DNA of 64,000 bases from Promethearchaeota archaeon. GTDB taxonomy: Archaea > Asgardarchaeota > Lokiarchaeia > Sigyniarchaeales > SOKP01. The stretch's first letter is position 1; every line of letters begins with the position of its first letter. Position numbers and translations under genes: made by a program. Shown one piece after another: positions 462 through 53,684 of this stretch. Location: assembly GCA_048941285.1 (NCBI GenBank), contig JBHLNS010000012.1, positions 8,859 through 72,858 on the forward strand, read 5' to 3'. Under the pieces are notes generated by a model. The model was given only the letters and a program-made list of their open reading frames with translations, was not told the DNA's origin and did not search any database.

Positions 462-2405
462 CTAAAAATTAGCCTCTAAATGTTCAATCTCAGCTAAAAA
501 TAAATCCGCAATTGTAACCCATTTTTTTTTTTCGTCAATATCACTTAAAATATTTTCTGTAAGTTCTTTGCCTTTCTTAAGATACTCTACTGCTTTTTTA
601 TAATTTTCTAGTTCTTTATAACAAATCCCTATTTTTATGTTAGTTTGATAAACATACCAATCATTACTACCAATTTTTATTGCTTTTAAGAATTCTTCAA
701 TAGCATTCTTATATTCCTTGAAAAACATTAGAATTTCACCATAACTGTCATGATATACTGCATTATTAGGAACTCGCCCTATAAGGTCTTGTATAATTTT
801 TATGGATTCTTCTTTTTGGTTTAAATATTGCAACCAAAAGGCCTTATAATTGAGAAGATCGTTGTCTTCTGGCTGCTTTTCAAGTAGTTGATCGATAATT
901 TCTAACCCAGATTTTACATTTTTCATTTCTTTAAGTACATACGCTCTTTTGACCTGAATACTTTTCTCTTCACCTGGAAATTCTAAAAGCATTTTATCTA
1001 GAAATTCTAACAATTGCTTATATTCACCTTTATCACGTAAAATTTTACTCTTAGAAAAATAAAGATCAATATTTTTGGGATTTGATTTTATAATTTCGTC
1101 AATATCTTTAATAGTATTACTAACTTCACTTTTTCTTCCGTTAAATGTAAATTCATAATCTTGGATTTCTTGCCAAATTAAACCTTCTAACTTATCATAT
1201 GTATCGACTAGCATTTTTTCTTTTTCAATTTTATATGCTAGATAATTAATATAACCTGGTAAAAATTTACGTAAAGAATTTTTTAACCCGTTATCGAAAA
1301 GATTGCCACAACTTTCCTCCAAGATAGCTGCAACTGTACTTTCCATAGTAAATGGAGATATTTCATTAGGTGTAGCTCCATATAAATTATTCAAATAAGA
1401 AAACCTAGTAATGTGATCCTCTACAATTGCATTTAGCATCCGTTCTAATTTCTCATTTGCTTGAAAGTAATATACTTCATTTTCGCTAAGTTCCAATTTA
1501 AAAAATTTGATTGGAAAAATATCTTCTTCAACTATTCTTAGTATAATAAAATTGAGTTTAACATAATTCAAATTATATTTTTTAGAAAAATCCTCTGAAG
1601 AAATATAAAAAGGATATTGATCCGGATGATTTATTGCTAGAAATAATAAAATTTTATGAAATTCTTCTTCTATTTCTAAAGAAGATTCTACTTTTTCATA
1701 TGGTAATTTTAGTACATTATTTAGAAAACGAAATTTTATATTTTCATCTTTTATCTTATATTTCTTAAAGAAGTTAATTGTAGTTTTGGTTATTTCTTTA
1801 ATGCGTTTACCTTCTTCCTCAAGGATCGATTGTCTGTCTAAATCATATAATCTTAACATATTTGAGTATTCTAATTTCCCTAGTTGGGTAATCCTATATT
1901 TTTTATCTTCTTTTTGGACATAGTCTTGATTTATTAACAAATTCATGTTTTTTGATAATGAAGATTGATTTATCTTCAGTGGGGTGTTAAGAAAATCCGC
2001 CCATTTACAAAAATTATTATTAAATAACATCCAGAGGATCCAATGATTATAGTTTCGCTTTCTAAGAATCGCACCAGGAGGAAAACTTAACTGTCTTCTT
2101 TTACCTTTAGATTGAGTTAATTCATAAAATCGATTTCTGCCTTTAGATGTAATTTGATATTTATTATAAGCACTTTTATTGATATAATCATTTTCAATTA
2201 AGGTTTTTAAATAATTATATAGAGTGGATTTGGAGAATATTTGGTTAGATTCCAAATTTTTAATTTCTAAAAAGTTAGCGCTTGAGCAAGATTCATTATT
2301 ATTTAACATCCAAAGTATAATAAGTTCAAATTTAGGCTTACTAATCCTGGAAGGGGGTTCTAAAATTTCTTTGGGAGGATAATTGATTATGTTTGCATTA
2401 ATCAA
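462..2405 (-). CDS. Tandem winged-helix + C-terminal TPR protein, putative transcriptional regulator
   Basis: Two similar N-terminal units (ILWML.NN..C...F...S.S.L...L..LI..DY..K....Y.IT..G) resemble wHTH domains. About the last 200 aa are TPR repeats. TTG start. Confidence 0.75.
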   Translation of the reverse strand: MINANIINYPPKEILEPPSRISKPKFELIILWMLNNNESCSSANFLEIKNLESNQIFSKSTLYNYLKTLIENDYINKSAYNKYQITSKGRNRFYELTQSKGKRRQLSFPPGAILRKRNYNHWILWMLFNNNFCKWADFLNTPLKINQSSLSKNMNLLINQDYVQKEDKKYRITQLGKLEYSNMLRLYDLDRQSILEEEGKRIKEITKTTINFFKKYKIKDENIKFRFLNNVLKLPYEKVESSLEIEEEFHKILLFLAINHPDQYPFYISSEDFSKKYNLNYVKLNFIILRIVEEDIFPIKFFKLELSENEVYYFQANEKLERMLNAIVEDHITRFSYLNNLYGATPNEISPFTMESTVAAILEESCGNLFDNGLKNSLRKFLPGYINYLAYKIEKEKMLVDTYDKLEGLIWQEIQDYEFTFNGRKSEVSNTIKDIDEIIKSNPKNIDLYFSKSKILRDKGEYKQLLEFLDKMLLEFPGEEKSIQVKRAYVLKEMKNVKSGLEIIDQLLEKQPEDNDLLNYKAFWLQYLNQKEESIKIIQDLIGRVPNNAVYHDSYGEILMFFKEYKNAIEEFLKAIKIGSNDWYVYQTNIKIGICYKELENYKKAVEYLKKGKELTENILSDIDEKKKWVTIADLFLAEIEHLEANF

Positions 2406-4407: not shown

Positions 4408-4588
4408 AATTTTAATCTTAAGCCTTTTATTTTAAAAAAATATAAATAAAAAAATGTAGAAAATCTATCAGTAATATTTTTTCTTTAATCTTTTTCTGAG
4501 AAGAATTAGGAAGTTTTTAAATATGACCTAACCATTTATTAATATAGCAATTTTAAAGCGAAATCTAAAATTAATAGAGGTTATAAAA

Positions 4589-4816
4589 ATGAGTAAAAAT
4601 TTAGAAGAAATAATTAATCAAAAATTTGGAGAAACTTACGGTCCAAAAATTAAGAAAGCATTGAAAGATGGATTAGAAGCTAATGATACTGAAGAACAAT
4701 TGAAAAAGCGCTTATTGGGGGCTATTATTGACCCAACCCAAGTTAATCAAGAGCAAGCTAACGCAGTTTTCGATCTTGTTATTGTAGCTGAATGGATCAC
4801 TTTTCGATCTCTATAG
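4589..4816 (+). CDS. 75-aa peptide, candidate RiPP precursor
   Basis: GAGGT SD at 4577-4581 and TATA-like TTTTTAAATA at 4514-4523. Charged helical N-terminal part, hydrophobic C-terminal tail (AVFDLVIVAEWITFRSL). Lies 72 nt upstream of a radical SAM gene. The CDS is well supported; the RiPP role is inference. Confidence 0.7.
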   Translation: MSKNLEEIINQKFGETYGPKIKKALKDGLEANDTEEQLKKRLLGAIIDPTQVNQEQANAVFDLVIVAEWITFRSL

Positions 4817-4828
4817 AAATAACTCCCA

Positions 4829-4855
4829 TTTTTCTTTTTATAATTTTTTCTTTTT
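4829..4855 (+). terminator. Oligo-T tract between the peptide gene and the radical SAM gene
   Basis: TTTTTCTTTTTATAATTTTTTCTTTTT resembles an archaeal T-rich terminator. Confidence 0.4.
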
Positions 4856-4888
4856 GGATTAAGAAATTTCTAAAATTAGATTTTACAT

Positions 4889-7156
4889 GTGTATTTGAAA
4901 TGTAATATTATAAGTGAATTTCTATTGAATGAGAATTATCTGGATATACTGATGGTTTTTCCTTCTGGTGGAGATTTTTATGTTCCTAATTTTACCTACA
5001 ATTTAGGTGCAGCATATATAATAGCATATTTAAGGAAAAATGGATATGCTGCTGAACAGTTCATTGCAAATCAATCTTACAATGTAGAAGAATGCGTTAA
5101 ATTATTATTAAAGTATAATCCAAAAATTATTGGTTTTACTGTTTATGATAGTAATTATATGCAATGTGCTTTGATAAGTAATGGATTGAAAGCCGTTAAT
5201 TCTGAAGTTCTTATCATTTTTGGAGGACCTACTCCTAGTGTGCAATCTAGACAAATTTTAGAAAGAGTGAAAAGCGTTGATATCTGTGTTAAATGGGAAG
5301 GGGAGGAAACACTTCTTTCATTATTAAACCAATTATCACAAAATGAATTCAAATTAAAAAATGTCGCTCTATTAAATATTAAAGGTATCTCATTTAGGAT
5401 TGAAGGTAAAATTGTTATAAATCCTGATTCTCATGTGTTATTGCAAAATAGGTCCATCGATAATTATTTAGACAATTATCCATCTCCTTATCTTACAAAA
5501 ATAATTCCAACTTCAGAAGCAGCCCGCACGGGGATGATCACTGCAAGAGGTTGTAATCAAAATTGTATTTATTGCAATAGTGCGGTTATCAGCAATAGAA
5601 ACATCTTCTTTCATTCAATAGATAGAGTTATTGAAGAGTTGGAACTTCTCAATAAAAATTCAGATTTTATCGGGCCTGTTCCAATTATGGATGATGCTTT
5701 TACAATAATCCCAGATAGAGCAAGAAAGATATGTGAAAAAATAATTGAAAATAAGATTAATATTCCATTAAGCTTCATAACTCGATGTGACAAGATTACT
5801 GAAGATTTACTAGACCTTATGAAGCAAGCGGGCTTTATGTCTGTTGGATTCTCTCTAGAAAGTGCTGTTCCGAGGGTCTTAAGAACGCTAGGCAAGGTAA
5901 ATCCTCCAGATAGCAAAACAGATTTTAACAAGGAGAAGGAATTCATTGAAAGATTGAAAAGAATGACTAGTTATGCGAAAAAGATAGGGTTTAGCCCCGT
6001 ATTTGTCAGTATAATGGTAGGTTTACCTGGTGAATCACTTAAAGATGCAAAAAAAACAATGAAGCTAGTAAGTCAATTAAACATGGATTTCTATGCCCAT
6101 AATTATCTACATATTTTTCAGGGGACTCCTCTCTATCAAAATCATTTAAAATATGGATACGAAATAACTCCATGGGGGAAAAATAATAACGTCATAACAC
6201 ATAATAACTTCCCATTTGATATCAACAAGATAAAATTAGCACCAAAATCTGAAATGGAGAGTAATCGTAAGGTTATTGATTATAAAAATCAAAAAATAAT
6301 GTCATTAAAACCCAAACGAGTGGATTTGAAACCTTATTTTGATAATGTAATTATTAACTCAGATATTATAAAGGATAATTTAGTCAAATGGATACAAGAT
6401 AACCTTAAAATAAATGGAACAATCATTCATCTTTATTCAAATAGAAAGAATTTCGACAAAAATAATATAAAAAATAATCAGGTCCTATATAACGATTTAT
6501 CACCAACTATGTTTTATGAATGCTACTTCAGGGAATATTCAAGGAAAAAGTCTATTTTCAAATCAAAGATAATATCTTCATTAGGTGATCAAATTGGTTT
6601 ATCTATTGTATTAAAAAACACTAATGTAGCTTTAGAAGAATACAAAATAGGTAAAACTAATATGGAAAACACAATTTGTATAGATCGCGATGTTATTGAC
6701 AGCCAATCACTTTACAATTATTTAATTAGGGTATTCAATAGTAAGGATCGTCTTAATTATTTACTAAAAAGCGCTCCATTGCCTCACTTTCAAAGTTTAT
6801 GCAGATGGACCAGTGCCTACGCAAATTGTAAAAAATTAGAAACAGTAATTATAGATCATGAAGACAATGTTAGATTTTGCTGGCAAATGGACCCAATCGG
6901 AAAAGTGGGAGATAATTTTAATAAAATCATAGAAAAATTACTCCAAATACATGAGGAACAAGTAAAAATAAGAGAATGTATTAGTTGTATTAGATATGAG
7001 ACTTGTATAAAATGTCCATTTACTAACCCTTTATCAATTGAGGAATATTGCGAATTGAAACGTAAAAATAATACAATCAAATCCACTAAAATAATTAATT
7101 CTGTTGATATATTAAAAGATTTAATGTATAAGCAGATTAATCGATTTGATTTCTAA
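4889..7156 (+). CDS. B12-binding radical SAM protein with C-terminal Cys-rich SPASM-like domain
   Basis: N-terminal cobalamin-binding domain (NLGAAYIIAYL...GFTV...FGGPTPS...WEGEE), RGCNQNCIYC (CxxxCxxC), GLPGES, and C-terminal CRW-X6-C...C...CISC-X5-CIKC...YC. The true start may be a few codons downstream. Confidence 0.9.
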   Translation: MYLKCNIISEFLLNENYLDILMVFPSGGDFYVPNFTYNLGAAYIIAYLRKNGYAAEQFIANQSYNVEECVKLLLKYNPKIIGFTVYDSNYMQCALISNGLKAVNSEVLIIFGGPTPSVQSRQILERVKSVDICVKWEGEETLLSLLNQLSQNEFKLKNVALLNIKGISFRIEGKIVINPDSHVLLQNRSIDNYLDNYPSPYLTKIIPTSEAARTGMITARGCNQNCIYCNSAVISNRNIFFHSIDRVIEELELLNKNSDFIGPVPIMDDAFTIIPDRARKICEKIIENKINIPLSFITRCDKITEDLLDLMKQAGFMSVGFSLESAVPRVLRTLGKVNPPDSKTDFNKEKEFIERLKRMTSYAKKIGFSPVFVSIMVGLPGESLKDAKKTMKLVSQLNMDFYAHNYLHIFQGTPLYQNHLKYGYEITPWGKNNNVITHNNFPFDINKIKLAPKSEMESNRKVIDYKNQKIMSLKPKRVDLKPYFDNVIINSDIIKDNLVKWIQDNLKINGTIIHLYSNRKNFDKNNIKNNQVLYNDLSPTMFYECYFREYSRKKSIFKSKIISSLGDQIGLSIVLKNTNVALEEYKIGKTNMENTICIDRDVIDSQSLYNYLIRVFNSKDRLNYLLKSAPLPHFQSLCRWTSAYANCKKLETVIIDHEDNVRFCWQMDPIGKVGDNFNKIIEKLLQIHEEQVKIRECISCIRYETCIKCPFTNPLSIEEYCELKRKNNTIKSTKIINSVDILKDLMYKQINRFDF

Positions 7157-32222: not shown

Positions 32223-32639
32223 CTATTCTCCTTGAATTTGGACATAAACTCTTCTATTTCGTGGCCCATCATACTCTGCAAACATTATTCCTTGCCATGT
32301 CCCTAGCATTAATCTACTATTATTGATTAATATTTCAACGGAGTGACCTGTTAACGAACATTTAATATGCGCATCAGAATTTCCTTCACCATGTTTATAG
32401 GAATACCCTAATCCACCACTCTTAGGAATGAGTTTACTTAAATAATTACTAATATCTTTAATAACAGAAGGATCTGCATTTTCATTGATAGTTACCGCTG
32501 CAGTAGTATGCGGAACAAATACTCGACATACTCCTTGTTCTACACCATATTTTCTAATAATATCATTAACTTGATTAGTAACATCTATTAATACTTCTCG
32601 TTCTGGAGTTTTAACTCTAAACTCATCAAATTTAATCAT
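32223..32639 (-). CDS. yjbQ: YjbQ/UPF0047 family protein
   Basis: PHTTAAVTINENADP, HGEGNSDAHIK and LGTWQGI.FAEYDGPR.R. Confidence 0.93.
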   Translation of the reverse strand: MIKFDEFRVKTPEREVLIDVTNQVNDIIRKYGVEQGVCRVFVPHTTAAVTINENADPSVIKDISNYLSKLIPKSGGLGYSYKHGEGNSDAHIKCSLTGHSVEILINNSRLMLGTWQGIMFAEYDGPRNRRVYVQIQGE

Positions 32640-32683: not shown

Positions 32684-33451
32684 TTAATCATTAAAAGATC
32701 CATGCTTCCCTTTTCCCTTTGAAAATTCCGCGCTACCCTCTAAGAATTCCCCACTTTCTAAAGTTCTCAAACCATATTCAAATTCTTTTGCCATAGCATC
32801 TTTCACATTTAAGCCAAATTGATTATAAACAGATAATCGATCATTCCTCATGCAAATTTTTGGAAATTTAGCTAGTTCTCTTGCCAAATTTTCTGCTTGT
32901 TGTTTTGATTGACCATCTTCAACAATTCGATTAGCGAGACCCCAAGAATATGCTTCATCAGTAGCTACAGGGCGTCCTGTTAGGATCATGTCTAATGCTC
33001 TACTTAAACCGATAAGTCGGGGTAAGCGAACTGTTCCACCATCAATTAAAGGTACGCCAAACCTACGGCAGAACACTCCAAATATAGCACTTCTCTCTAC
33101 CACTCGTAAATCACACCATAATGCTAATTCGAGACCTCCTGCAACAGCATATCCCGCAACTGCTGCAATTACTGGTTTTGTTAATCTCATCCTTGTAGGG
33201 CCCATAGGCCCATCGCCTTTTTTCTCTATTCGATTTCCAATACCCTCTGTTATGGCTTCTAAATTAGCGCCAGAACAAAAAGTACCATTAGCACCCCATA
33301 AAACAGCAACTTCTGCTTTATCATCATTTTCAAATTTGCGAAAAGCATCAGCAAGTTCTTTAGCAGTAGGGCCATCTACAGCATTTTTAACCTTTGGATT
33401 ATCTAAAATAATCGTATAAATTGGATAGTTTATTTCTATAAAAACTGCCAT
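32684..33451 (-). CDS. Enoyl-CoA hydratase/isomerase family protein
   Basis: FCSGANL, AVAGGLELALWCDLRV and GVPLIDGGTVRLPRLIG. Start moved to ATG 33451 (MAVFIE) because the upstream extension is AT-rich and not protein-like. Confidence 0.92.
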   Translation of the reverse strand: MAVFIEINYPIYTIILDNPKVKNAVDGPTAKELADAFRKFENDDKAEVAVLWGANGTFCSGANLEAITEGIGNRIEKKGDGPMGPTRMRLTKPVIAAVAGYAVAGGLELALWCDLRVVERSAIFGVFCRRFGVPLIDGGTVRLPRLIGLSRALDMILTGRPVATDEAYSWGLANRIVEDGQSKQQAENLARELAKFPKICMRNDRLSVYNQFGLNVKDAMAKEFEYGLRTLESGEFLEGSAEFSKGKGKHGSFND

Positions 33452-33810
33452 GGAAAAACATAAATTTTTAGAAATAAAAAATTTAATGAATTTAAAATTG
33501 AAATTTGATATATTAATTTGGTTTACTTTTTTAACTAAAACGGAATCTATCAAATATTATTCCTATTTTAATATTGAATGAAGATTCATTCAAAAATCAA
33601 CTTTATTTAAAAAATTTCTTTAATCCTTGAAGATTCCTTATGAAACTCAAATTAAGTATACGTTTTATGATAATGTTGGCGATTTGGTTAAACTTATATA
33701 TGATGCAAATTATTCAACTAGATATCTATTAAGTCAAACGGATATTACACTGAATAGATGTTCATTTAATAAAATTTAAAGAAAAATTTAATAAAAAAAG
33801 GTCGAAAAAA

Positions 33811-34836
33811 ATGGTTATAAAAACACAAATAACTGAAATGTTAGGGATTAAGCATCCAATAGTTGCTGCACCAATGGGACCCTTTTATACAACAAATCTA
33901 ACAATCGCGGTCTCAGAAGCAGGAGGCTTAGGCGTTTTAAGCCATGTAACATTAAGTGAAGGCATCACCGTTAATCAAATTAAAGAAAGTATGAAGAAGG
34001 TAGTTGAACATACTGATAAACCTTTTGGATTAAATATTAGAACCGCAGCATTACAACCTGATGCCATAAAACTATGTAGACAAATTCCAAAGTTTATAAT
34101 GGATAATCCAAAAATCAAAGAACAATGTACTTATCTAATTACAAGTGCAGGGTCTCCAAAGATACTTTACAACAAATATTATAAGGAACTAAAGAAATCA
34201 TCAAATATCAAAAATTTTCACGTAGTACCTTCTTTAGAGTTAGCTAAAAAAGTGATAAAAGATGGTGTAGATGGGATAGTCGCAACCGGACACGAAGGTG
34301 GAGGGCATCAAGCTTATGAAAGTGCAAGTACTTTAGTACTTTTACAGCAAATTAGACAAGAAATTCCAGAAATTCCTATTATCGCTTGTGGAGGCTATGG
34401 AACTGGAGAAGGATTAGCATCAGCTTTGGCTATGGGAGCTGGGGCAATTGCAATGGGAACAAGACTTATTGCATCAAAGGAATGTGAATTTCATGAAAAT
34501 TATAAGAATGAAGTTAAAAATTCTACTATATCCGATACTAAAATGGTTACTGGAGTTTTTGGACCAGCAAGAGTTTTAAAGAATAACTATGCAAAAACTG
34601 CCACTGTTGTATTAAATAAAGCAGAAAAAAGAGCTGAAGAAACTTCTATTGAAGTAATTAGAGAGGGGGTATTAAAATTAGAGAAAGCATATAAAGGAGA
34701 CGTTGATAATGGTATTATACTCTTAGGACAAAGTTGTGGGCTGGTAGACGAAATAGAGAGTGTCTCAGACATAATTAATTCAATTGTAGATAGTGCTGAG
34801 AAATGCCTTAAGAGTGCATATTACATGGTAAACTAA
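33811..34836 (+). CDS. Nitronate monooxygenase / FabK-like flavoprotein
   Basis: LGIKHPIVAAPM, VSEAGGLG, GHEGGGH, IACGG and MGTR. Confidence 0.88.
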   Translation: MVIKTQITEMLGIKHPIVAAPMGPFYTTNLTIAVSEAGGLGVLSHVTLSEGITVNQIKESMKKVVEHTDKPFGLNIRTAALQPDAIKLCRQIPKFIMDNPKIKEQCTYLITSAGSPKILYNKYYKELKKSSNIKNFHVVPSLELAKKVIKDGVDGIVATGHEGGGHQAYESASTLVLLQQIRQEIPEIPIIACGGYGTGEGLASALAMGAGAIAMGTRLIASKECEFHENYKNEVKNSTISDTKMVTGVFGPARVLKNNYAKTATVVLNKAEKRAEETSIEVIREGVLKLEKAYKGDVDNGIILLGQSCGLVDEIESVSDIINSIVDSAEKCLKSAYYMVN

Positions 34837-35120: not shown

Positions 35121-36209
35121 TTATTTTTGATTTTTCAAATATTCATTCATTTCAACAAAACTGCTAGTTCTAATTAGTGCTGCTTTGAGAAATTGGAACC
35201 CTATATCATATGTAGAACCATCTCCTCCGATATGGATAATCCAGGGTATCTCTTGGTTATAAAGATTTTTTGCTTTCATGATCTTTTTTGCGGTTGAGAT
35301 TGCTTCAGCAACTGTAGCACCAGATTCAAATAAATGGTGAACCCAAGGAACATTCCAAGAAGTTACGTTATCTTTTGAAGTTGAAACTTCTGAACAACTC
35401 GTATTATTAACATAAATTATATTCTTATCTGCAACAGCGGTTGCAGCAGTTGCCATTTGATTTAAAACCATCCCCGCACCACAACCAGGACACAATCCAT
35501 GACCTGGTTGTAAATGGGTTTGAGGTTGCAGTTTCTTTCGGTTTACTCTATAAACATCCATAGATTTTTCAGCACCAAATTTATCGATTAATGCTTTTAT
35601 TTTATTATTGCGTTGCTCTGTTAAGTAAATGATCTCATCAATTTCTTTTTCCATGAACTTGGGTTTAAATAGATGCCTAAATTTTCCCATTGATTTAAGA
35701 TAATCAACAAATTTATCCCTATCAATATCTAATCCGCGATAATAAGTAAAAGTGGGGATACCATCGTTAACCCTTACCGTGTAAAGAGGCCAATATCCAC
35801 AATCAGTTGCTAGTTTTGAGATGTTGAGAGCGTCAGAAGCATCATGCCTCCATCCTCTCATACAATCAGAATAAGCTTGAATAAACGCAGAACCATTTGA
35901 TTTAAGTGCATCAGCTACTTTTCCCATAAAATCATTTGGATATGCTGGATTTACTGTAGCTAAGAAAAGTTTTTTAGTTCCATAGAAAGCAAATGGAGTT
36001 ACTAAATCCTGCTTTATACCTATTTTACCTGGAATTTTATCTCCTGCTGGACCTGTTGTTGTAGAGGCATAAGGAGGTGTTCCTCCGCTTTCTTGGATCC
36101 CTGTATTCATAAACGCTTCATTATCATAATTGAAAAATAATACATTACATTTTTCATTTCGGGCTAAGATATCATCAAAATTAATAATATTTCTCTCGGA
36201 TTTTCCCAT
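35121..36209 (-). CDS. porB: 2-oxoacid (pyruvate):ferredoxin oxidoreductase beta subunit, circularly permuted
   Basis: YDNEAFMNTGIQ lies near the N-terminus. HGLCPGCG, NTSC and GGDGSTYDIG lie in the C-terminal half. This is the reverse of the canonical order. Confidence 0.88.
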   Translation of the reverse strand: MGKSERNIINFDDILARNEKCNVLFFNYDNEAFMNTGIQESGGTPPYASTTTGPAGDKIPGKIGIKQDLVTPFAFYGTKKLFLATVNPAYPNDFMGKVADALKSNGSAFIQAYSDCMRGWRHDASDALNISKLATDCGYWPLYTVRVNDGIPTFTYYRGLDIDRDKFVDYLKSMGKFRHLFKPKFMEKEIDEIIYLTEQRNNKIKALIDKFGAEKSMDVYRVNRKKLQPQTHLQPGHGLCPGCGAGMVLNQMATAATAVADKNIIYVNNTSCSEVSTSKDNVTSWNVPWVHHLFESGATVAEAISTAKKIMKAKNLYNQEIPWIIHIGGDGSTYDIGFQFLKAALIRTSSFVEMNEYLKNQK

Positions 36210-37439
36210 TTATTGATTCACCCCTGAAATTCTTTGTTTTGATTCTCGAACCCCTAAATATTGATATAACTCTCCTTTCATATCTGATACAGACTCCATT
36301 TTCTTTTTTGCTATGTCAAATTCATCTCGAGTAACATCTCTTCCACCTAAACCAACAATAAAGCTCCTAAAAAGTGTTCCCAAAGGATATAACGCAGAAG
36401 CAACTGACATTGAAAACGGCGGTAACAATCCATTTAGAGAATCGCTTTTTTCTAGAAGAATTAATTTTTCTAAACCAAATTCTTCTACAATATTCCGTAA
36501 TTCTTCATGTGGAAAAGGTCGGTATGCTCTGATTTTAATTAAACCTATATCCTTGTTTTTTGTCATCCAACTAATAATATTACCACTTACACTACCCATA
36601 GTACAAAAAGCAGTTTTAGATGAATTATCTAAATTATAAGTTTCAATTAGGTTATATTCTCTTCCTGTCTCTGTTTTGAATTTATTAAATACATCCTCCA
36701 TTTGGCCTAAAACAGGTTTTTTGGCATCTTCTAATCTTGCTCGTCCTTCCATAAAGTAGGATGGGGTGACAATACCTCCCCATGTTCCTGGCTTTGATGG
36801 GTCAATAGTGTGCCTTGACTTCTTGGGAGTCATTCTTTTAACAGTTTCATCCGGTATTAATGTTAATTTCTGAACGGAATGAGAAATTATAAATCCATCA
36901 TGCACAAATATAGTTGGAAATAAAGATTCCTCTGAAATCATGACTGAAAGTATTGCTGCATCATAAGTCTCTTGCACATTTTCAGAAACAATTATATTCC
37001 ACCCAAGCTCAGAATTAACTTGCGTAAATTCCCAAGAATTCCAAATAGATAAGTTTGGGGAATTGAAAGCTCTAGCAGAAATCATCATTGTTAAAGGCAA
37101 TCTCCATCCTACTGCCATGGGAAGTGCTTCGGTCATTAATAAATAACCTTGACTTGCGGTAGCAGTAAAAGATCTTGCACCCGCTGCACATGCAGCTGTT
37201 GAAAAACTTATAGCAGCTAATTCTGATTCGACATTCACAAATGCAGCTTTTAATCTTCCATGATGAACCACATCAGATAAACCTTCAACAGACTGAGTTT
37301 GTGGGGTAATAGGAAAAGCGCAAATAACATCAGGGTCTGTCTGAGTCACACCACCAGCAACAGCATAATTTCCTATCATTGTTGTTTCTATTGGTTCCTT
37401 AATTTCTTTAAAAAATATTCTCATTGGCTCTATACTCAT
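36210..37439 (-). CDS. porA: 2-oxoacid (pyruvate):ferredoxin oxidoreductase alpha subunit
   Basis: GNYAVA, AFPITPQT, VESE, TATASQG and GLGGRDV. Start placed at ATG 37439 behind a GGAGG SD. Confidence 0.92.
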   Translation of the reverse strand: MSIEPMRIFFKEIKEPIETTMIGNYAVAGGVTQTDPDVICAFPITPQTQSVEGLSDVVHHGRLKAAFVNVESELAAISFSTAACAAGARSFTATASQGYLLMTEALPMAVGWRLPLTMMISARAFNSPNLSIWNSWEFTQVNSELGWNIIVSENVQETYDAAILSVMISEESLFPTIFVHDGFIISHSVQKLTLIPDETVKRMTPKKSRHTIDPSKPGTWGGIVTPSYFMEGRARLEDAKKPVLGQMEDVFNKFKTETGREYNLIETYNLDNSSKTAFCTMGSVSGNIISWMTKNKDIGLIKIRAYRPFPHEELRNIVEEFGLEKLILLEKSDSLNGLLPPFSMSVASALYPLGTLFRSFIVGLGGRDVTRDEFDIAKKKMESVSDMKGELYQYLGVRESKQRISGVNQ

Positions 37440-37453
37440 AATATATTCCTCCT

Positions 37454-38443
37454 TTATTCGGGTACGGCGCATGAGGCCGGACCTTGTTTTAATTCTTTAG
37501 TTATTGCTTGAACAGGACAAATTTCTAGGCAATTTTGACAAGATTTGCAGTGAGATTGATCAATACCTTTCATATGCCATAGACCATCCTCTCCTCTTTC
37601 TCTTATAATTGTAAAATCAGGACAAATGTACCAGCACTGCGCACAGTCAGTACATTTTTCCTCATCCCAAATCATATTCCACTCACCCCAAGAACCAGTA
37701 TTTACTTGCTTACTCCCCATCTCTATAACATCTTCATCACAATACCACACACCCGCATCATCTATTTCTTTATATCCTGGTAATCCAGGATAAACCTGTT
37801 GCCAAGGAACTTTTGTATCAATGCTAAAATCAATATCAGGAGCTTCTGATGTTTCATAAATACAAGTCTCTTCATAAGCTTGTTTTATAGCAGCAACATT
37901 TTTCCCAGCAATTTCACCTTTGAATCGACGCATTATTGCATCTGCTAACGCATCAATAGAAAATATAGGCACCACCCTTAATAAAGCTCCTAAAATGATT
38001 GTATTTGTAATGTTTCTGCCTAGAATCTCCATTGCAATATTTAATGCATCGATTGTTGCGATATTTACATCTTTTCGACCAATAATTTGTTGAATTGATA
38101 CTTGATCCATTGTAGTATTAACAATAAGCCACCCTCCAGGAGCTAGTCCTGCTATAACATCAACTTCTCCTAAAAGTGAGGGATCTAATACAGAAACTGC
38201 ATGTGGTGCATAAACTTGTTCATTTGTTCTTACCAAGTCTTCATTTGCACTTAACCTAACATAACTTTCTGTTGGAGATCCCATACGTTCTGCACCAAAT
38301 AAAGGTTGGCAGACTCCATACCCATAAAATGCTTCAACACATAAATTAGAAGCAGTAACTCCACCTTGACCACCACGAGCATGAAATCTAAGATTCACTA
38401 CATTCTCTTTTAAAATTTCTTTCATTTTTTCTGGAGTTAGCAT
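37454..38443 (-). CDS. Fused gamma-delta subunit of 2-oxoacid:ferredoxin oxidoreductase
   Basis: Gamma part RFHARGGQGGVT and FGAERMGSP. Delta part TGSW, CTDCAQCWYICP and CKSCQNCLEICP (2x[4Fe-4S]). Confidence 0.9.
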   Translation of the reverse strand: MLTPEKMKEILKENVVNLRFHARGGQGGVTASNLCVEAFYGYGVCQPLFGAERMGSPTESYVRLSANEDLVRTNEQVYAPHAVSVLDPSLLGEVDVIAGLAPGGWLIVNTTMDQVSIQQIIGRKDVNIATIDALNIAMEILGRNITNTIILGALLRVVPIFSIDALADAIMRRFKGEIAGKNVAAIKQAYEETCIYETSEAPDIDFSIDTKVPWQQVYPGLPGYKEIDDAGVWYCDEDVIEMGSKQVNTGSWGEWNMIWDEEKCTDCAQCWYICPDFTIIRERGEDGLWHMKGIDQSHCKSCQNCLEICPVQAITKELKQGPASCAVPE

Positions 38444-50929: not shown

Positions 50930-51904
50930 ATGAAAGAATTAATAACTCCAGAAAAAATTCAAAAGAGAATATCCACTGGAGATTTAACTAGAGAAAATGC
51001 AACAGAACATTTAATTTCATTAATTGAGGGTAGTGATGATACAAGAATTCGTATCATGAGTATTAAAATTTTAGAAAAATTAAATTTTCAAAATGAAAAT
51101 TTATTTAAAATCATGGAGAATTGTCTGGTATCAGATGAAAGCGCTATAATCAGAGCTGTAGTAGCAAAATATATAATTCAAAATTATCTAGAAGAGGGAA
51201 TATCGGCTTTAATATGGGCTCTTCAACATGAAACGTCTCCATTAGTATTAATACTTTTTTTTGAGTTCATAGAGAAATTTGGATCTCCTCAATTTGAGTC
51301 AATAAGAAAGGAATTACTTATCTGGAATAAAGATTTCTCTAAAAAAATCGGAGTAGTTCCACAAGAGTCAAGATTTTTTTTAGATTTAGAATTATTATTT
51401 GCGAAAAGTAAAGAAAATTATATAATTAATCCAAACAGCTATAAATATTTCAAGATTATAAAAAATATTAATGAAAGAGATCCTTGGTTAATTATTAAAG
51501 ATCAACATATCCAATCTTTAACTTTTAATTACTTTAATTGGAAATATATTAAATATAACTCAGATATTCTTAAATCTCTTTTCAAATTACAAAACATTGA
51601 AGTATACTTAGATTCGATAAGGAAATATAGCCAGAATGATGTTTTACTACCATCAATTCCAGAATCAATAGGATCTCTTACCCATTTAAAAAAGTTAAAT
51701 CTCCGAAAAAATGGATTAGAAACATTACCTTATTCTTTTAAAAATCTTACTCTGCTTAAAGAGTTAGACTTAAGCTACAATAATCTAAAAGAGATTCCAG
51801 AATATATTTACTCATTCAATAACTTGGAAAGACTTAACATAAAGCATAATAATATCCAAAACATCCCAAAATCCTTATCAAATAAAATTATACTAATTAG
51901 ATAA
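50930..51904 (+). CDS. HEAT + leucine-rich repeat protein
   Basis: N-terminal HEAT-like repeats (LVSDESAIIRAVV) and C-terminal LRRs (LKKLNLRKNGLETLP, LKELDLSYNNLKEIP). Confidence 0.85.
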   Translation: MKELITPEKIQKRISTGDLTRENATEHLISLIEGSDDTRIRIMSIKILEKLNFQNENLFKIMENCLVSDESAIIRAVVAKYIIQNYLEEGISALIWALQHETSPLVLILFFEFIEKFGSPQFESIRKELLIWNKDFSKKIGVVPQESRFFLDLELLFAKSKENYIINPNSYKYFKIIKNINERDPWLIIKDQHIQSLTFNYFNWKYIKYNSDILKSLFKLQNIEVYLDSIRKYSQNDVLLPSIPESIGSLTHLKKLNLRKNGLETLPYSFKNLTLLKELDLSYNNLKEIPEYIYSFNNLERLNIKHNNIQNIPKSLSNKIILIR

Positions 51905-51953: not shown

Positions 51954-53684
51954 TTGAATAAAGTGAATATTATGGCTGAAGAAAAGAAAATGATAAATGG
52001 TGGCGATGTTTTAATTAAATGCCTTCTAAAAGAGAATGTCAAATATTTATTTGGCATTCCTGGTGGACAATTTTTAAACATGTATGATGCAGTTTATAAG
52101 TGGGGAAGAGAACAAGGGATAAATACAGTTTTATTCAGACATGAGGCATCAGCAGGCCATGCGGCTGATGCGTGGGCGAGATTGACAAATACACCTGGTA
52201 TATGTTTTGGAACCGCTGGACCTGGAGCAACAAACCTAATCTCAGGAGTTGGGGCGGCTTGGGCAGATAATATTCCTGTAATTGCGATTGTGCCTCAAGT
52301 AAATTCTGAGTTTCAGGATTCTTTTACTTTGCAGGGTAGTCTTGATCAAATCGGAATGTATAAACCAATTACAAAATATCAGAAAAGTGTTCGCAAACTA
52401 AAAGAAATCCCAGATGCAGTTCATAAAGCTTTTAGAGAAGTTTTAAGTGGTCGACCTCAGCCTGCTTTATTAGAAATATTTGAAGATGCTTTTCTTGAAG
52501 AGATTGAGGAAGATCAATTAGAAATCCTAAATAAAGAGAAATATCGAGCTTTTGAAAAACCAGCTATTAAGGATGAATTAATTGAAGAGGCTTTAAACCT
52601 ATTAAAAAATGCCAAAAAACCATTGATTATATCGGGTGGAGGTATTTCGCGAGCAGAGGCCTGGAGTGAACTAGAAGAATTTGTTGACTATTTAAAGTTG
52701 CCTGTAATTACAACGAGTACTGGAATCGGGACAATACCAAATAAAACTCAATATTTATTTGGAGCTGGTGTTGCTGGTATGGGATTAAAGATAATACCGG
52801 AAGCAGATGTTATCATTGCTCTAGGATGTAAATTTTCTTGGACAATGGCACATGGTGAAGAACCTTTTTGGAAAGATTCTCAGACTTTAATTCAAGTAGA
52901 TATAGATCCCGCTATAATTGGCCGTGCGAAACCAATAACATTAGGTATTCATGGAGATTGTAAACATTTCTTGACCCAAATACTTGAAAAGGCAAAAAAA
53001 TCAGATAGAGTAGAAAGTAGGGAATGGTTGGATGATCTTATCCATACGCGAGAGAATAATATTGAAAAATTGAATAAGAAATTATCTAAGGATAAAGTAC
53101 CAATAGTACCAAAGAGACTTATTAAAGATGTTTTAGAAACTATAGAAGAAGAAGCGATTTTAATTCTTGATGGTGGAGATATATCTGTTTCAGCAGCAGA
53201 GCAAATTTTTGATTATAATGTACGAAAACCACTCTCAACATTAGCAGCTACGGGTATGGGTCAATTAGGTACTGCTGTACCATATGGAATTGGAGCAAAG
53301 TTGGCAAAGCCAGATAAGCAAGTCGTTGCTATAGCGGGGGATGGGAGTTTTATGATTAATATCCAAGATTTAGAAACTGCGGTGAGATTAAATTTAAAGA
53401 ATCTAGTATATGTGATTGCTAATAATAGTGCATGGGGAATGATTAAATCTGGACAGAAATTGTTTAAAGGAAAAAGATACATTGATGTAGACTTTCCAGA
53501 ATTTGATTATGCAAAATGTGCTGAAGGTTTTGGTTGCTATGGGGAAGTCGTAACTGATCCTAATGAAATTAAACCAGCTCTTAAAAGAGCAATAAACTCA
53601 GGAAAACCTGCCGTTTTAGATGTAAAGATAGGGTTTGAAACCCCTGATACAACTAAACTTATGGGAAGTATGGGGATCCTCTAA
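51954..53684 (+). CDS. ThDP-dependent enzyme, acetolactate synthase / 2-hydroxyacyl-CoA lyase family
   Basis: FGIPGG, RHE, GPGATN and GDGSF...NN..WGM. ATG at 51972 is a likely start. Confidence 0.9.
   Translation: MNKVNIMAEEKKMINGGDVLIKCLLKENVKYLFGIPGGQFLNMYDAVYKWGREQGINTVLFRHEASAGHAADAWARLTNTPGICFGTAGPGATNLISGVGAAWADNIPVIAIVPQVNSEFQDSFTLQGSLDQIGMYKPITKYQKSVRKLKEIPDAVHKAFREVLSGRPQPALLEIFEDAFLEEIEEDQLEILNKEKYRAFEKPAIKDELIEEALNLLKNAKKPLIISGGGISRAEAWSELEEFVDYLKLPVITTSTGIGTIPNKTQYLFGAGVAGMGLKIIPEADVIIALGCKFSWTMAHGEEPFWKDSQTLIQVDIDPAIIGRAKPITLGIHGDCKHFLTQILEKAKKSDRVESREWLDDLIHTRENNIEKLNKKLSKDKVPIVPKRLIKDVLETIEEEAILILDGGDISVSAAEQIFDYNVRKPLSTLAATGMGQLGTAVPYGIGAKLAKPDKQVVAIAGDGSFMINIQDLETAVRLNLKNLVYVIANNSAWGMIKSGQKLFKGKRYIDVDFPEFDYAKCAEGFGCYGEVVTDPNEIKPALKRAINSGKPAVLDVKIGFETPDTTKLMGSMGIL

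Follow-up and report, generated by a model that had tools for sequence, protein, structure and literature searches.

A naturally circularly permuted, probably functional β subunit of a 2-oxoacid:ferredoxin oxidoreductase in Lokiarchaeia-type archaea

We analyzed a 64,000-nucleotide stretch (hereafter, the window) of contig JBHLNS010000012.1 (positions 8,859 to 72,858, forward strand) from the Promethearchaeota archaeon assembly GCA_048941285.1, concentrating on one gene, which we call porB′. Its product is very probably a genuine, functional and natural circular permutant: the β subunit of a three-gene 2-oxoacid:ferredoxin oxidoreductase (OFOR) of the pyruvate/branched-chain type, in which the two halves of a canonical PorB chain have changed places. 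We favor this reading of sequence and model because the permuted gene is widely conserved, its whole chain is under purifying selection, its cofactor and cluster ligands are invariant, its operon is conserved and its structure is modeled with confidence in rotated order. The same observations agree with the original prediction for this gene, made from the DNA letters of the window, which had proposed a functional natural permutant. Its activity and substrate, the geometry of its active site and the route by which it arose are what we infer from them.

The reading frame of porB′ encodes 362 amino acids without interruption, as predicted, and the motifs by which the gene had been recognized are all present at the predicted residues: YDNE (D29-N30-E31), YSDCMRGW (C116) and PGHGLCPGCG (C240 and C243), with NTSCSEV (C272), HLFE and GGDGSTYDIGFQ (G329-D330-G331) in the later part of the chain. 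A phmmer search of solved structures returned PorB from M. acetivorans (9bt4, chain C) as two separate stretches in reversed order. Residues 226–347 matched chain residues 3–115 (independent E-value 1.3e-17), which hold the CxxC pair, the third cysteine and the GDG motif with its helix, and residues 23–193 matched chain residues 119–282 (5e-26), which hold YDNE, the NTG loop and the fourth cysteine. Each half is therefore significant when aligned separately, and the proposed swap of the canonical halves is borne out. The β subunit of oxalate oxidoreductase (5c4i_C) gave the same swapped two-piece pattern, and the NCBIfam PorB model (NF008819) also matched in two stretches, with residues 20–192 falling on profile positions 118–291 of 300. 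Judged from these alignments, the swapped match lies far beyond chance.

The signature GDG-X(~27)-N is the textbook mark of enzymes that use thiamine diphosphate (ThDP). In porB′, the cut lies between the helix that follows GDG and the strand that precedes YDNE, leaving GDG (329–331) and DNE (29–31) at opposite ends of the chain; the break inside the ThDP/Mg motif had been predicted correctly. The ThDP enzyme encoded at 51954–53684(+) of the window, to which that prediction had pointed for comparison, is acetolactate-synthase-like, and its GDG...NN motif is contiguous. In its sequence and its modeled secondary structure, porB′ combines the three hallmarks of a natural circular permutant, namely rotated elements, old termini that have been joined and new termini that lie inside the old chain. 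The coordinates of the gene, its segments and its partners are given in Table 1.

Table 1 Coordinates of porB′, its segments and its partner genes in the window.
Feature	Position	Strand	Evidence or remarks
porB′, circularly permuted OFOR β subunit	35121..36209	(-)	362 aa + stop; two-piece swapped match to 9bt4_C, 5c4i_C and NCBIfam PorB
New N-terminal segment, aa 1–22	36144..36209	(-)	AlphaFold2 model: strand 6–10, helix 11–15
C-half of canonical PorB, now first, aa 23–193	35631..36143	(-)	Match to 9bt4_C 119–282; strand, YDNE (D29 N30 E31, 36117–36125), NTG loop, fourth cluster cysteine C116 (35862–35864)
Connector, aa 194–225	35535..35630	(-)	End of old C-terminal helix (model H187–211) and extra strand (model E212–221)
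N-half of canonical PorB, now last, aa 226–347	35169..35534	(-)	Match to 9bt4_C 3–115; C240 and C243 (CxxC, 35481–35492), C272 (35394–35396), GDG G329–G331 (35217–35225), post-GDG helix
New C-terminal tail, aa 348–362 (TSSFVEMNEYLKNQK)	35124..35168	(-)	Helix 352–358 in model; conservation 0.68
porA, α subunit, PYR domain and domain II	36210..37472	(-)	420 aa; Pfam POR_N 1.5e-53, PFOR_II; NCBIfam PorA_Arch 2.7e-87
porGD, fused γ (domain III) and δ (2x[4Fe-4S] ferredoxin)	37454..38443	(-)	329 aa; Pfam POR 3.2e-27 and Fer4

This arrangement is shared by the whole family. A profile of 41 canonical-order sequences split all 105 permuted members alike, with residues 20–206 falling at the median on columns 120–294 and residues 226–352 on columns 8–124, and Pfam TPP_enzyme_C (PF02775) covered no more of porB′ than residues 17–111 (24.9 bits). 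D29, N30, E31, N35, T36, G37, C116, C240, C243, C272, G329, D330 and G331 are each identical in 105 of 105 sequences of the family alignment. Within this set, G329, D330, G331, D29 and N30 align to the ThDP/Mg motif of 9bt4_C while being non-contiguous in the porB′ chain, and C240, C243, C272 and C116 align to the four cysteines that hold the [4Fe-4S] cluster of PorB; the predicted retention of all four cysteines thus extends to every sequence aligned.

M. acetivorans PorB, from a four-subunit archaeal pyruvate:ferredoxin oxidoreductase (PFOR), is both the best sequence match (E-value 9e-47 overall) and the best Foldseek match of porB′. The two proteins have the ThDP motif residues, the four cluster cysteines, the secondary-structure elements and the partner subunits in common, but porB′ has its halves swapped, carries four extra elements, is accompanied by a fused γ-δ subunit and is only about 31% identical. 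The oxalate oxidoreductase (OOR) of Moorella thermoacetica (5c4i, 5exd, 5exe) is likewise encoded by three genes with a fused γ-δ-like subunit, and its β subunit is the second-best match (1.3e-40); it differs in the canonical order of that subunit and in an α-subunit Arg in the PITP motif where porA has Thr. Two canonical PorB/VorB-type paralogues in the same genome, C22 (299 aa) and C29 (327 aa), bear the same motifs and are 29–36% identical to the matching halves of porB′, but they keep the canonical order and score near the thresholds of the PorB and VorB models (360–388 bits). By BLASTP, residues 16–145 of porB′ correspond to C22 residues 115–237, and residues 222–352 to C22 residues 2–123. 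Taken on these similarities, porB′ evidently descends from PorB/VorB-type OFOR β subunits and is predicted to work like them.

The connector, which leads from the old C-terminal helix into the canonical N-terminus, has no gaps in the 105 sequences and is both conserved (mean conservation 0.74) and confidently modeled, with a predicted local distance difference test (pLDDT) value of about 89–94. At the new termini, residues 1–22 may retain a faint trace of the post-GDG helix, and the tail (348–362) may represent what is left, after decay, of the strand and DNE that follow this helix in canonical PorB. We also considered MDVYRVNRK (217–225) as a remnant of the old N-terminus, given its resemblance to MDCWRLNKR of C29; the motif occurs in one of the 41 canonical sequences, C29 itself, and we attribute the resemblance to chance.

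A single-chain AlphaFold2 model of porB′, calculated from a 57-sequence alignment, reached a mean pLDDT of 79.2 and a predicted TM-score of 0.84, with low confidence at the cofactor loop (31–68) and at residues 275–280; the model of canonical C22 had a pLDDT of 94.4. Nineteen of the 20 elements of the C22 model recur in porB′ in cyclically rotated order, and the missing one falls in the low-confidence loop. Specifically, canonical H24–36 ... E94–100 (GDG), H101–106 and H109–117 correspond to H244–260 ... E323–329 (GDG), H330–335 and H338–350 of the permutant, and canonical E123–128 (DNE) ... H275–298 to E23–29 (DNE) ... H187–211. The four extra elements are a strand and a helix at the N-end, a strand in the connector and a helix at the C-end. 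Foldseek aligned the porB′ model to 9bt4_C with TMq/TMt of 0.39/0.48, against 0.85/0.87 for the canonical C22 control. VIA-align matched the back half to PFOR domain VI, OOR β and PorB (Z 10–11.8) and model residues 225–362 to OGOR/OFOR β chains (Z 4.3–4.8). Sequential aligners such as these pick up only one of the halves in any given alignment, the behavior expected with a permutant; on their own they do not establish the fold of the entire domain.

In a strand-helix-strand crossover, the C-terminal ends of the strands carry the ligands, and the loop from helix to strand lies at the opposite edge. Given this usual topology, the cut in porB′ probably falls in the crossover loop opposite the cofactor, with the chain ends remote from the cofactor itself. 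The chain starts just before the YDNE strand and continues with the diphosphate loop, the fourth cluster cysteine and what was once the C-terminal helix; a short, structured connector then leads to the former N-terminus with its CxxC pair and third cysteine, and the GDG strand and helix come last. We propose that the folded domain would be the usual ThDP 'PP' domain, in which D330, close to the C-end, and N30, close to the N-end, would form the cofactor-Mg site and C240, C243, C272 and C116 would hold the proximal [4Fe-4S] cluster. Together with the α subunit, which contributes the PYR domain, and the γ-δ subunit, it would convert a 2-oxoacid to acyl-CoA and CO2 with reduction of ferredoxin.

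An unusual gene order in a draft genome raises the question of an assembly or binning artefact, in which the halves were wrongly joined or two porB copies formed a chimera. The genome that contains the window is in 101 contigs, with 94% completeness and 3.4% contamination. Sequencing runs, examined as Logan contigs, offer short contigs of which none spans the whole of porB′; their depth is uninformative, and several bins of X2 and X19 are uncovered. Even so, contigs from three other studies bridge the half-to-half junction with 0–2 mismatches (X3, 35361–35948, 2 mismatches; X1, 35440–35664, 0; X2, 35494–35699, 1), which speaks against the misassembly that the original prediction had named as a risk. 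The X3 and X2 contigs also cross the stop codon, and the connector is additionally covered by contigs of X19, an RNA library (e.g., 35525–35717, 4 differences).

Independent genomes argue in the same direction. A collinear permuted porB covering residues 1–362 is present, at 51–95% identity, in 31 of 40 relatives, comprising 17 of 24 in the genus, nine of 11 in family f2, the one member of f3 and all four of f4; four of these genomes are single contigs (G006, G032, G033 and G038). Named genome contigs contain 243 loci that encode a relative, including one on the 3.34-Mb chromosome CP070831.1. Of these loci, 80 were retained; their titles are almost all Promethearchaeota or Promethearchaeia, with some Hermod-, Hod-, Thor- or Odinarchaeota. 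As the order is intact down to 51% identity, the permutant must have persisted for a long time. With the 66 phylum genomes described below, these occurrences refute an artefact for practical purposes, and the chance that it explains porB′ is vanishingly small.

For the survey of the phylum, we drew 300 other genomes evenly and searched them at E ≤ 1e-60. The permuted gene was carried by 57 of 68 members of the window's family, by six of seven in a second family of the order, and by one of one and none of one in two further families of the class. This amounts to 64 of 77 genomes in the class and one of 223 outside it or, with the window's own genome, to 66 of 301. The same order, then, does occur in other Asgard genomes, and the suggestion that it might mark a lineage is supported by its confinement to one class among the genomes sampled. 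The sole match outside the class (G241) is an 87%-identical fragment (aa 1–266) in a bin with 8% contamination, and we read it as a mis-binned contig and not as presence in another class, although this is not proven. In conclusion, the permutation is real, old, conserved, class-wide and selected.

More broadly, 191 protein clusters in a large protein collection matched at E ≤ 1e-10. A HMMER search of 1.84 billion representatives recovered one full-length collinear permutant, P0121 (53% identity, Helarchaeota label), in addition to fragments. The best 150 representatives divide into 122 of canonical order, two permuted, five permuted-type fragments and 21 that by BLAST have the back half only; no second permuted lineage was seen among them. 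The closest canonical relatives are labeled Altiarchaeales and Bathyarchaeia, and those closest by score (cluster P0125) are fused Altiarchaeales proteins of 849–861 aa, named 'hypothetical protein', with the β part at the C-terminus (669–834). Two further loci deserve mention. L113 (G001:C42), from a bin with 9% contamination, has the full permuted gene at 4436–5494(-) and, some 2.5 kb downstream on the same strand, a second, partial copy that comprises the N-half only (1553–1900(-), aa 247–362, 76% identity, in a 118-aa frame); this copy may reflect either a genuine partial duplication or a chimera of strains. At locus L078 (DATKTW010000155.1), an 82%-identical full-length permuted porB appears under the record title 'Candidatus Nanopelagicaceae bacterium'; here, a contig of archaeal origin has probably been placed in a bacterial metagenome-assembled genome.

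The permuted gene is the last of three. porGD overlaps porA by 19 nt, and the TAA stop of porA immediately precedes the ATG of porB′, so that the two abut, as predicted; a GGGGTG motif lies upstream and an oligo-T tract follows porB′. From this layout of a three-gene archaeal OFOR, porB′ is predicted to be translationally coupled to porA. NCBIfam models of the PorC/PorD type match porGD, as does OOR delta on residues 52–316, and the best match of porA is 9bt4_B (PorA; 3.9e-53). Among 87 loci, we counted 74 full-length porA orthologues that adjoin a permuted porB, and the order porGD-porA-porB′ is present in the window and in six of seven distant loci. The exception, in the single-contig genome G033 (G033:C1, L106, 4564–5613(+)), is a permuted porB that stands alone without upstream porA or porGD; it starts MLARKTNNYFLAVNYDNE and lacks the extra N-terminal strand.

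The conserved α residues of PFORs bind the substrate and activate ThDP. In 75 α sequences, T56, E82, E84 and R134 are each 100% conserved and the motifs FPITPQT, NVESE and ISARAF 97–100%; both the PFOR-type Thr (in FPITPQT) and Arg (in ISARAF) are kept. OOR α (5c4i_A) instead has Arg in place of this Thr (ypiRpyt), a residue of the PIxP motif that we take to be oxalate-binding. The window's enzyme is accordingly not of the oxalate type by the models NF045790–NF045792, with α scoring 139.5 against a cut-off of 500 bits and delta 80.5 against 230, and by the missing α Arg. Across orders, β′ is 52–61% identical, between α (58–70%) and γ-δ (44–54%). β′ and its own α are both missing from G012 and G088 (99% complete), in which the absence of the permuted operon can be real; in G023, with α at a contig edge, β′ is probably merely cut off. 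A 715-aa open frame in G186 was rejected as an α-β′ fusion, as a run of 100 N separates the genes.

Selection was estimated by pooling 17 pairs of the window gene with orthologues of at least 85% identity; 50 of the 80 loci had given ungapped full-length orthologues. The ratio of nonsynonymous to synonymous substitution rates (dN/dS) was 0.05 for the whole of porB′, 0.12 for residues 1–22, 0.07 for the connector (194–225) and 0.02 for the tail (348–362), values that are approximate and not independent because dS (1.1–2.3) is near or beyond saturation and the window sequence is common to all pairs. In every segment, pN is far below pS and dN/dS stays below 0.17. These comparisons point to purifying selection over the entire chain, termini and linker included. 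They bear on whether porB′ might be a decaying, non-functional leftover from tandem duplication, consisting of a back half fused to a front half, while canonical OFORs do the work. Such a leftover could be suspected from the two canonical-order paralogues in the same genome, from near-complete congeners that lack the operon and from family-model scores under the cut-offs. It is nonetheless very improbable, given the low dN/dS in all segments, cofactor and cluster ligands that are invariant in 105 of 105 sequences, the absence of stop codons from the listed permuted copies other than G058 (one TAA), and dedicated α and γ-δ subunits that are conserved and are lost together with β′.

The permuted forms make up a single clade, most likely with one origin. 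In an unrooted tree, 18 permuted and 41 canonical sequences were separated by one branch with 100/100 support, a split recovered in 100% of 200 bootstrap trees; here, the canonical side consisted of the best-scoring relatives of 280–345 aa, and the permuted halves were re-ordered for alignment only. In a mechanism that most likely describes this event, porB was duplicated in tandem, the copies were fused in frame, and the front half of the first copy and the back half of the second were lost, once, in an ancestor of the Lokiarchaeia-type class. Coverage by the canonical profile extends to residue ~206–208, in the former C-terminal helix, and begins again at 226, which leaves just ~17 residues unmatched between old termini that nearly adjoin. 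On the canonical sequence, both ends of the chain share columns 120–124 (median 4 columns, range -1 to 10; 9 residues by BLASTP). With hhalign, the C-terminal segment aligned to the canonical GDG-helix-strand at a probability of 97.8%, with a weak extension of SSFVEM---NEY against TNFIYACYDNEA. We favor duplication, fusion and truncation because both chain ends overlap on canonical sequence and the tail is weakly DNE-like, neither of which fission predicts.

The alternative, which concerns the origin only, is fission at the boundary between the GDG helix and the next strand, followed by exchange of the pieces and re-fusion. It could draw on P0199 and P0262, which have a Met exactly at the break ('MLERGHDILYVCYDNE', 193 aa, and 'MIERQQKILFICYDNE', 188 aa), and on the lack of any β-β tandem fusion (three to four matched stretches) among the best 150 representatives. 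The two proteins, which begin M-x-ER-...-YDNE and comprise the back half of PorB only, could be naturally split β subunits or mis-called fragments; they come without genomic context, and three similar short proteins, P0212, P0231 and P0252, have no start Met. As fission also leaves the overlapping ends and the weak run of the C-tail into a DNE-like relic unaccounted for, we consider it a doubtful route. Near the same position in the chain, P0213 (413 aa), a PorB fragment in canonical order, begins with ~220 residues of homing-endonuclease- or intein-like appearance, and this insert ends just before the post-GDG 'DIGLQAL' helix, close to the permutant cut.

Several observations weigh against a functional permutant of this type and origin. 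No curated family model gives porB′ a collinear full-length match above its cut-off: it scores 205.2 bits with PorB and 165.5 with the VorB-type model (NF008818), each against 405, and 177.7 with OOR β against 590; the α subunit scores 293 against 550. Two canonical OFOR sets coexist in the genome, and the permuted operon is dispensable, as two near-complete congeners live without it. The cofactor loop (31–68) has a pLDDT of about 35–40 in porB′ and is confident in C22. X19 is one metatranscriptome library with short contigs that may contain DNA, and its coverage speaks for presence, not transcription. Concerning the duplication, the N-terminal segment aligned in register to the same canonical helix and strand as the C-terminal one, but weakly (P 0.003, probability 10.7%), and a direct profile comparison of the N-end (1–28) with the C-end (326–362) was out of register and not significant (E 0.19). 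Finally, the permuted clade sits on a long branch, so that its substrate may differ from pyruvate.

This last point leads to a further possibility: a functional enzyme that is no longer a pyruvate oxidoreductase and now prefers a different 2-oxoacid (e.g., 2-oxobutyrate or one of the branched-chain or aromatic acids that come from amino-acid fermentation), or that has changed in regulation or assembly, with the shift linked to the permutation. It would fit the stem of the permuted clade, at 1.16 changes per column in a quick tree, the sub-threshold scores to every named equivalog, the status of the operon as a third OFOR set and the four extra elements at the new termini and connector. The Arg of canonical NTGIQRS is, moreover, replaced by Glu in porB′ (E40, at least 90% conserved), and the available text on a cultured relative describes amino-acid catabolism through 2-oxoacids such as pyruvate or 2-oxobutyrate (PMC7015854). 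On the other hand, the PFOR-type Thr and Arg of α are fully conserved, β′ keeps N35, PorA and PorB remain the closest matches by family and by structure, the Thr of α excludes the oxalate type, and nothing ties the permutation itself to specificity. We consider a permutation-linked shift possible but rather unlikely, and we retain a functional permutant of the pyruvate/branched-chain type as the best explanation.

Other genes near the operon were noted. A UPF0047 (YjbQ-type) protein is encoded at 32223–32639(-), at a distance of 2.5 kb from the operon; next to it are genes for an enoyl-CoA hydratase (32684–33553) and a nitronate-monooxygenase-family protein (33811–34836). Just upstream of the acetolactate-synthase-like gene, 50930–51904(+) encodes a 324-aa protein whose C-terminal part looks leucine-rich-repeat-like by sequence (e.g., LKKLNLRKNGLETLP, LKELDLSYNNLKEIP).

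We found no published description of a permuted OFOR β subunit in the literature searched, which did not extend to subscription journals and supplements. A 2026 review of PFOR diversity mentions neither permutation, domain order or a swap nor Asgard or Loki archaea, and the available text of the isolation paper of the cultured relative (PMC7015854) does not mention permutation. All 26 permuted-protein rows listed carry the NCBI name 'hypothetical protein'. The term circular permutation has been applied, in the accessible part of a preprint, to the PP-PYR-CFX order of the dehydrogenase/transketolase families versus PYR-CFX-PP in the decarboxylases (bioRxiv 10.1101/2021.03.21.436335). As described there, such rearrangements move whole domains and leave GDG...N contiguous, whereas the cut in porB′ lies inside the PP domain and within the motif.

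Asgard energy metabolism has been argued to run through 2-oxoacid oxidation, as far as the available text of PMC7015854 goes. Because the family models fail on the swapped order, scoring at half the cut-off, metabolic reconstructions of Asgard archaea can easily overlook one OFOR set out of three. Confined as it is to one class in the sampled genomes, the permuted gene is also usable as a molecular marker. More speculatively, and with little confidence, the permutant may be a class-wide Lokiarchaeia-type invention, in which the ThDP-Mg site is clamped by the two chain ends and a new sub-structure is made up of the additional strand and helix at the N-terminus, the strand of the connector and the helix at the C-terminus. 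Closure of the cofactor loop or docking of β′ to α might then be altered, giving a distinct substrate range or oxygen/redox behavior in these relatives of the ancestor of eukaryotes, whose metabolism is syntrophic and ferments amino acids. A natural and long-lived cut inside the GDG...N signature indicates where the PP domain can be opened. If the invention is real, it would be the first natural proof that the ThDP PP domain tolerates a cut inside its signature motif, and protein engineers would have in it a finished blueprint for splitting or permuting ThDP enzymes.

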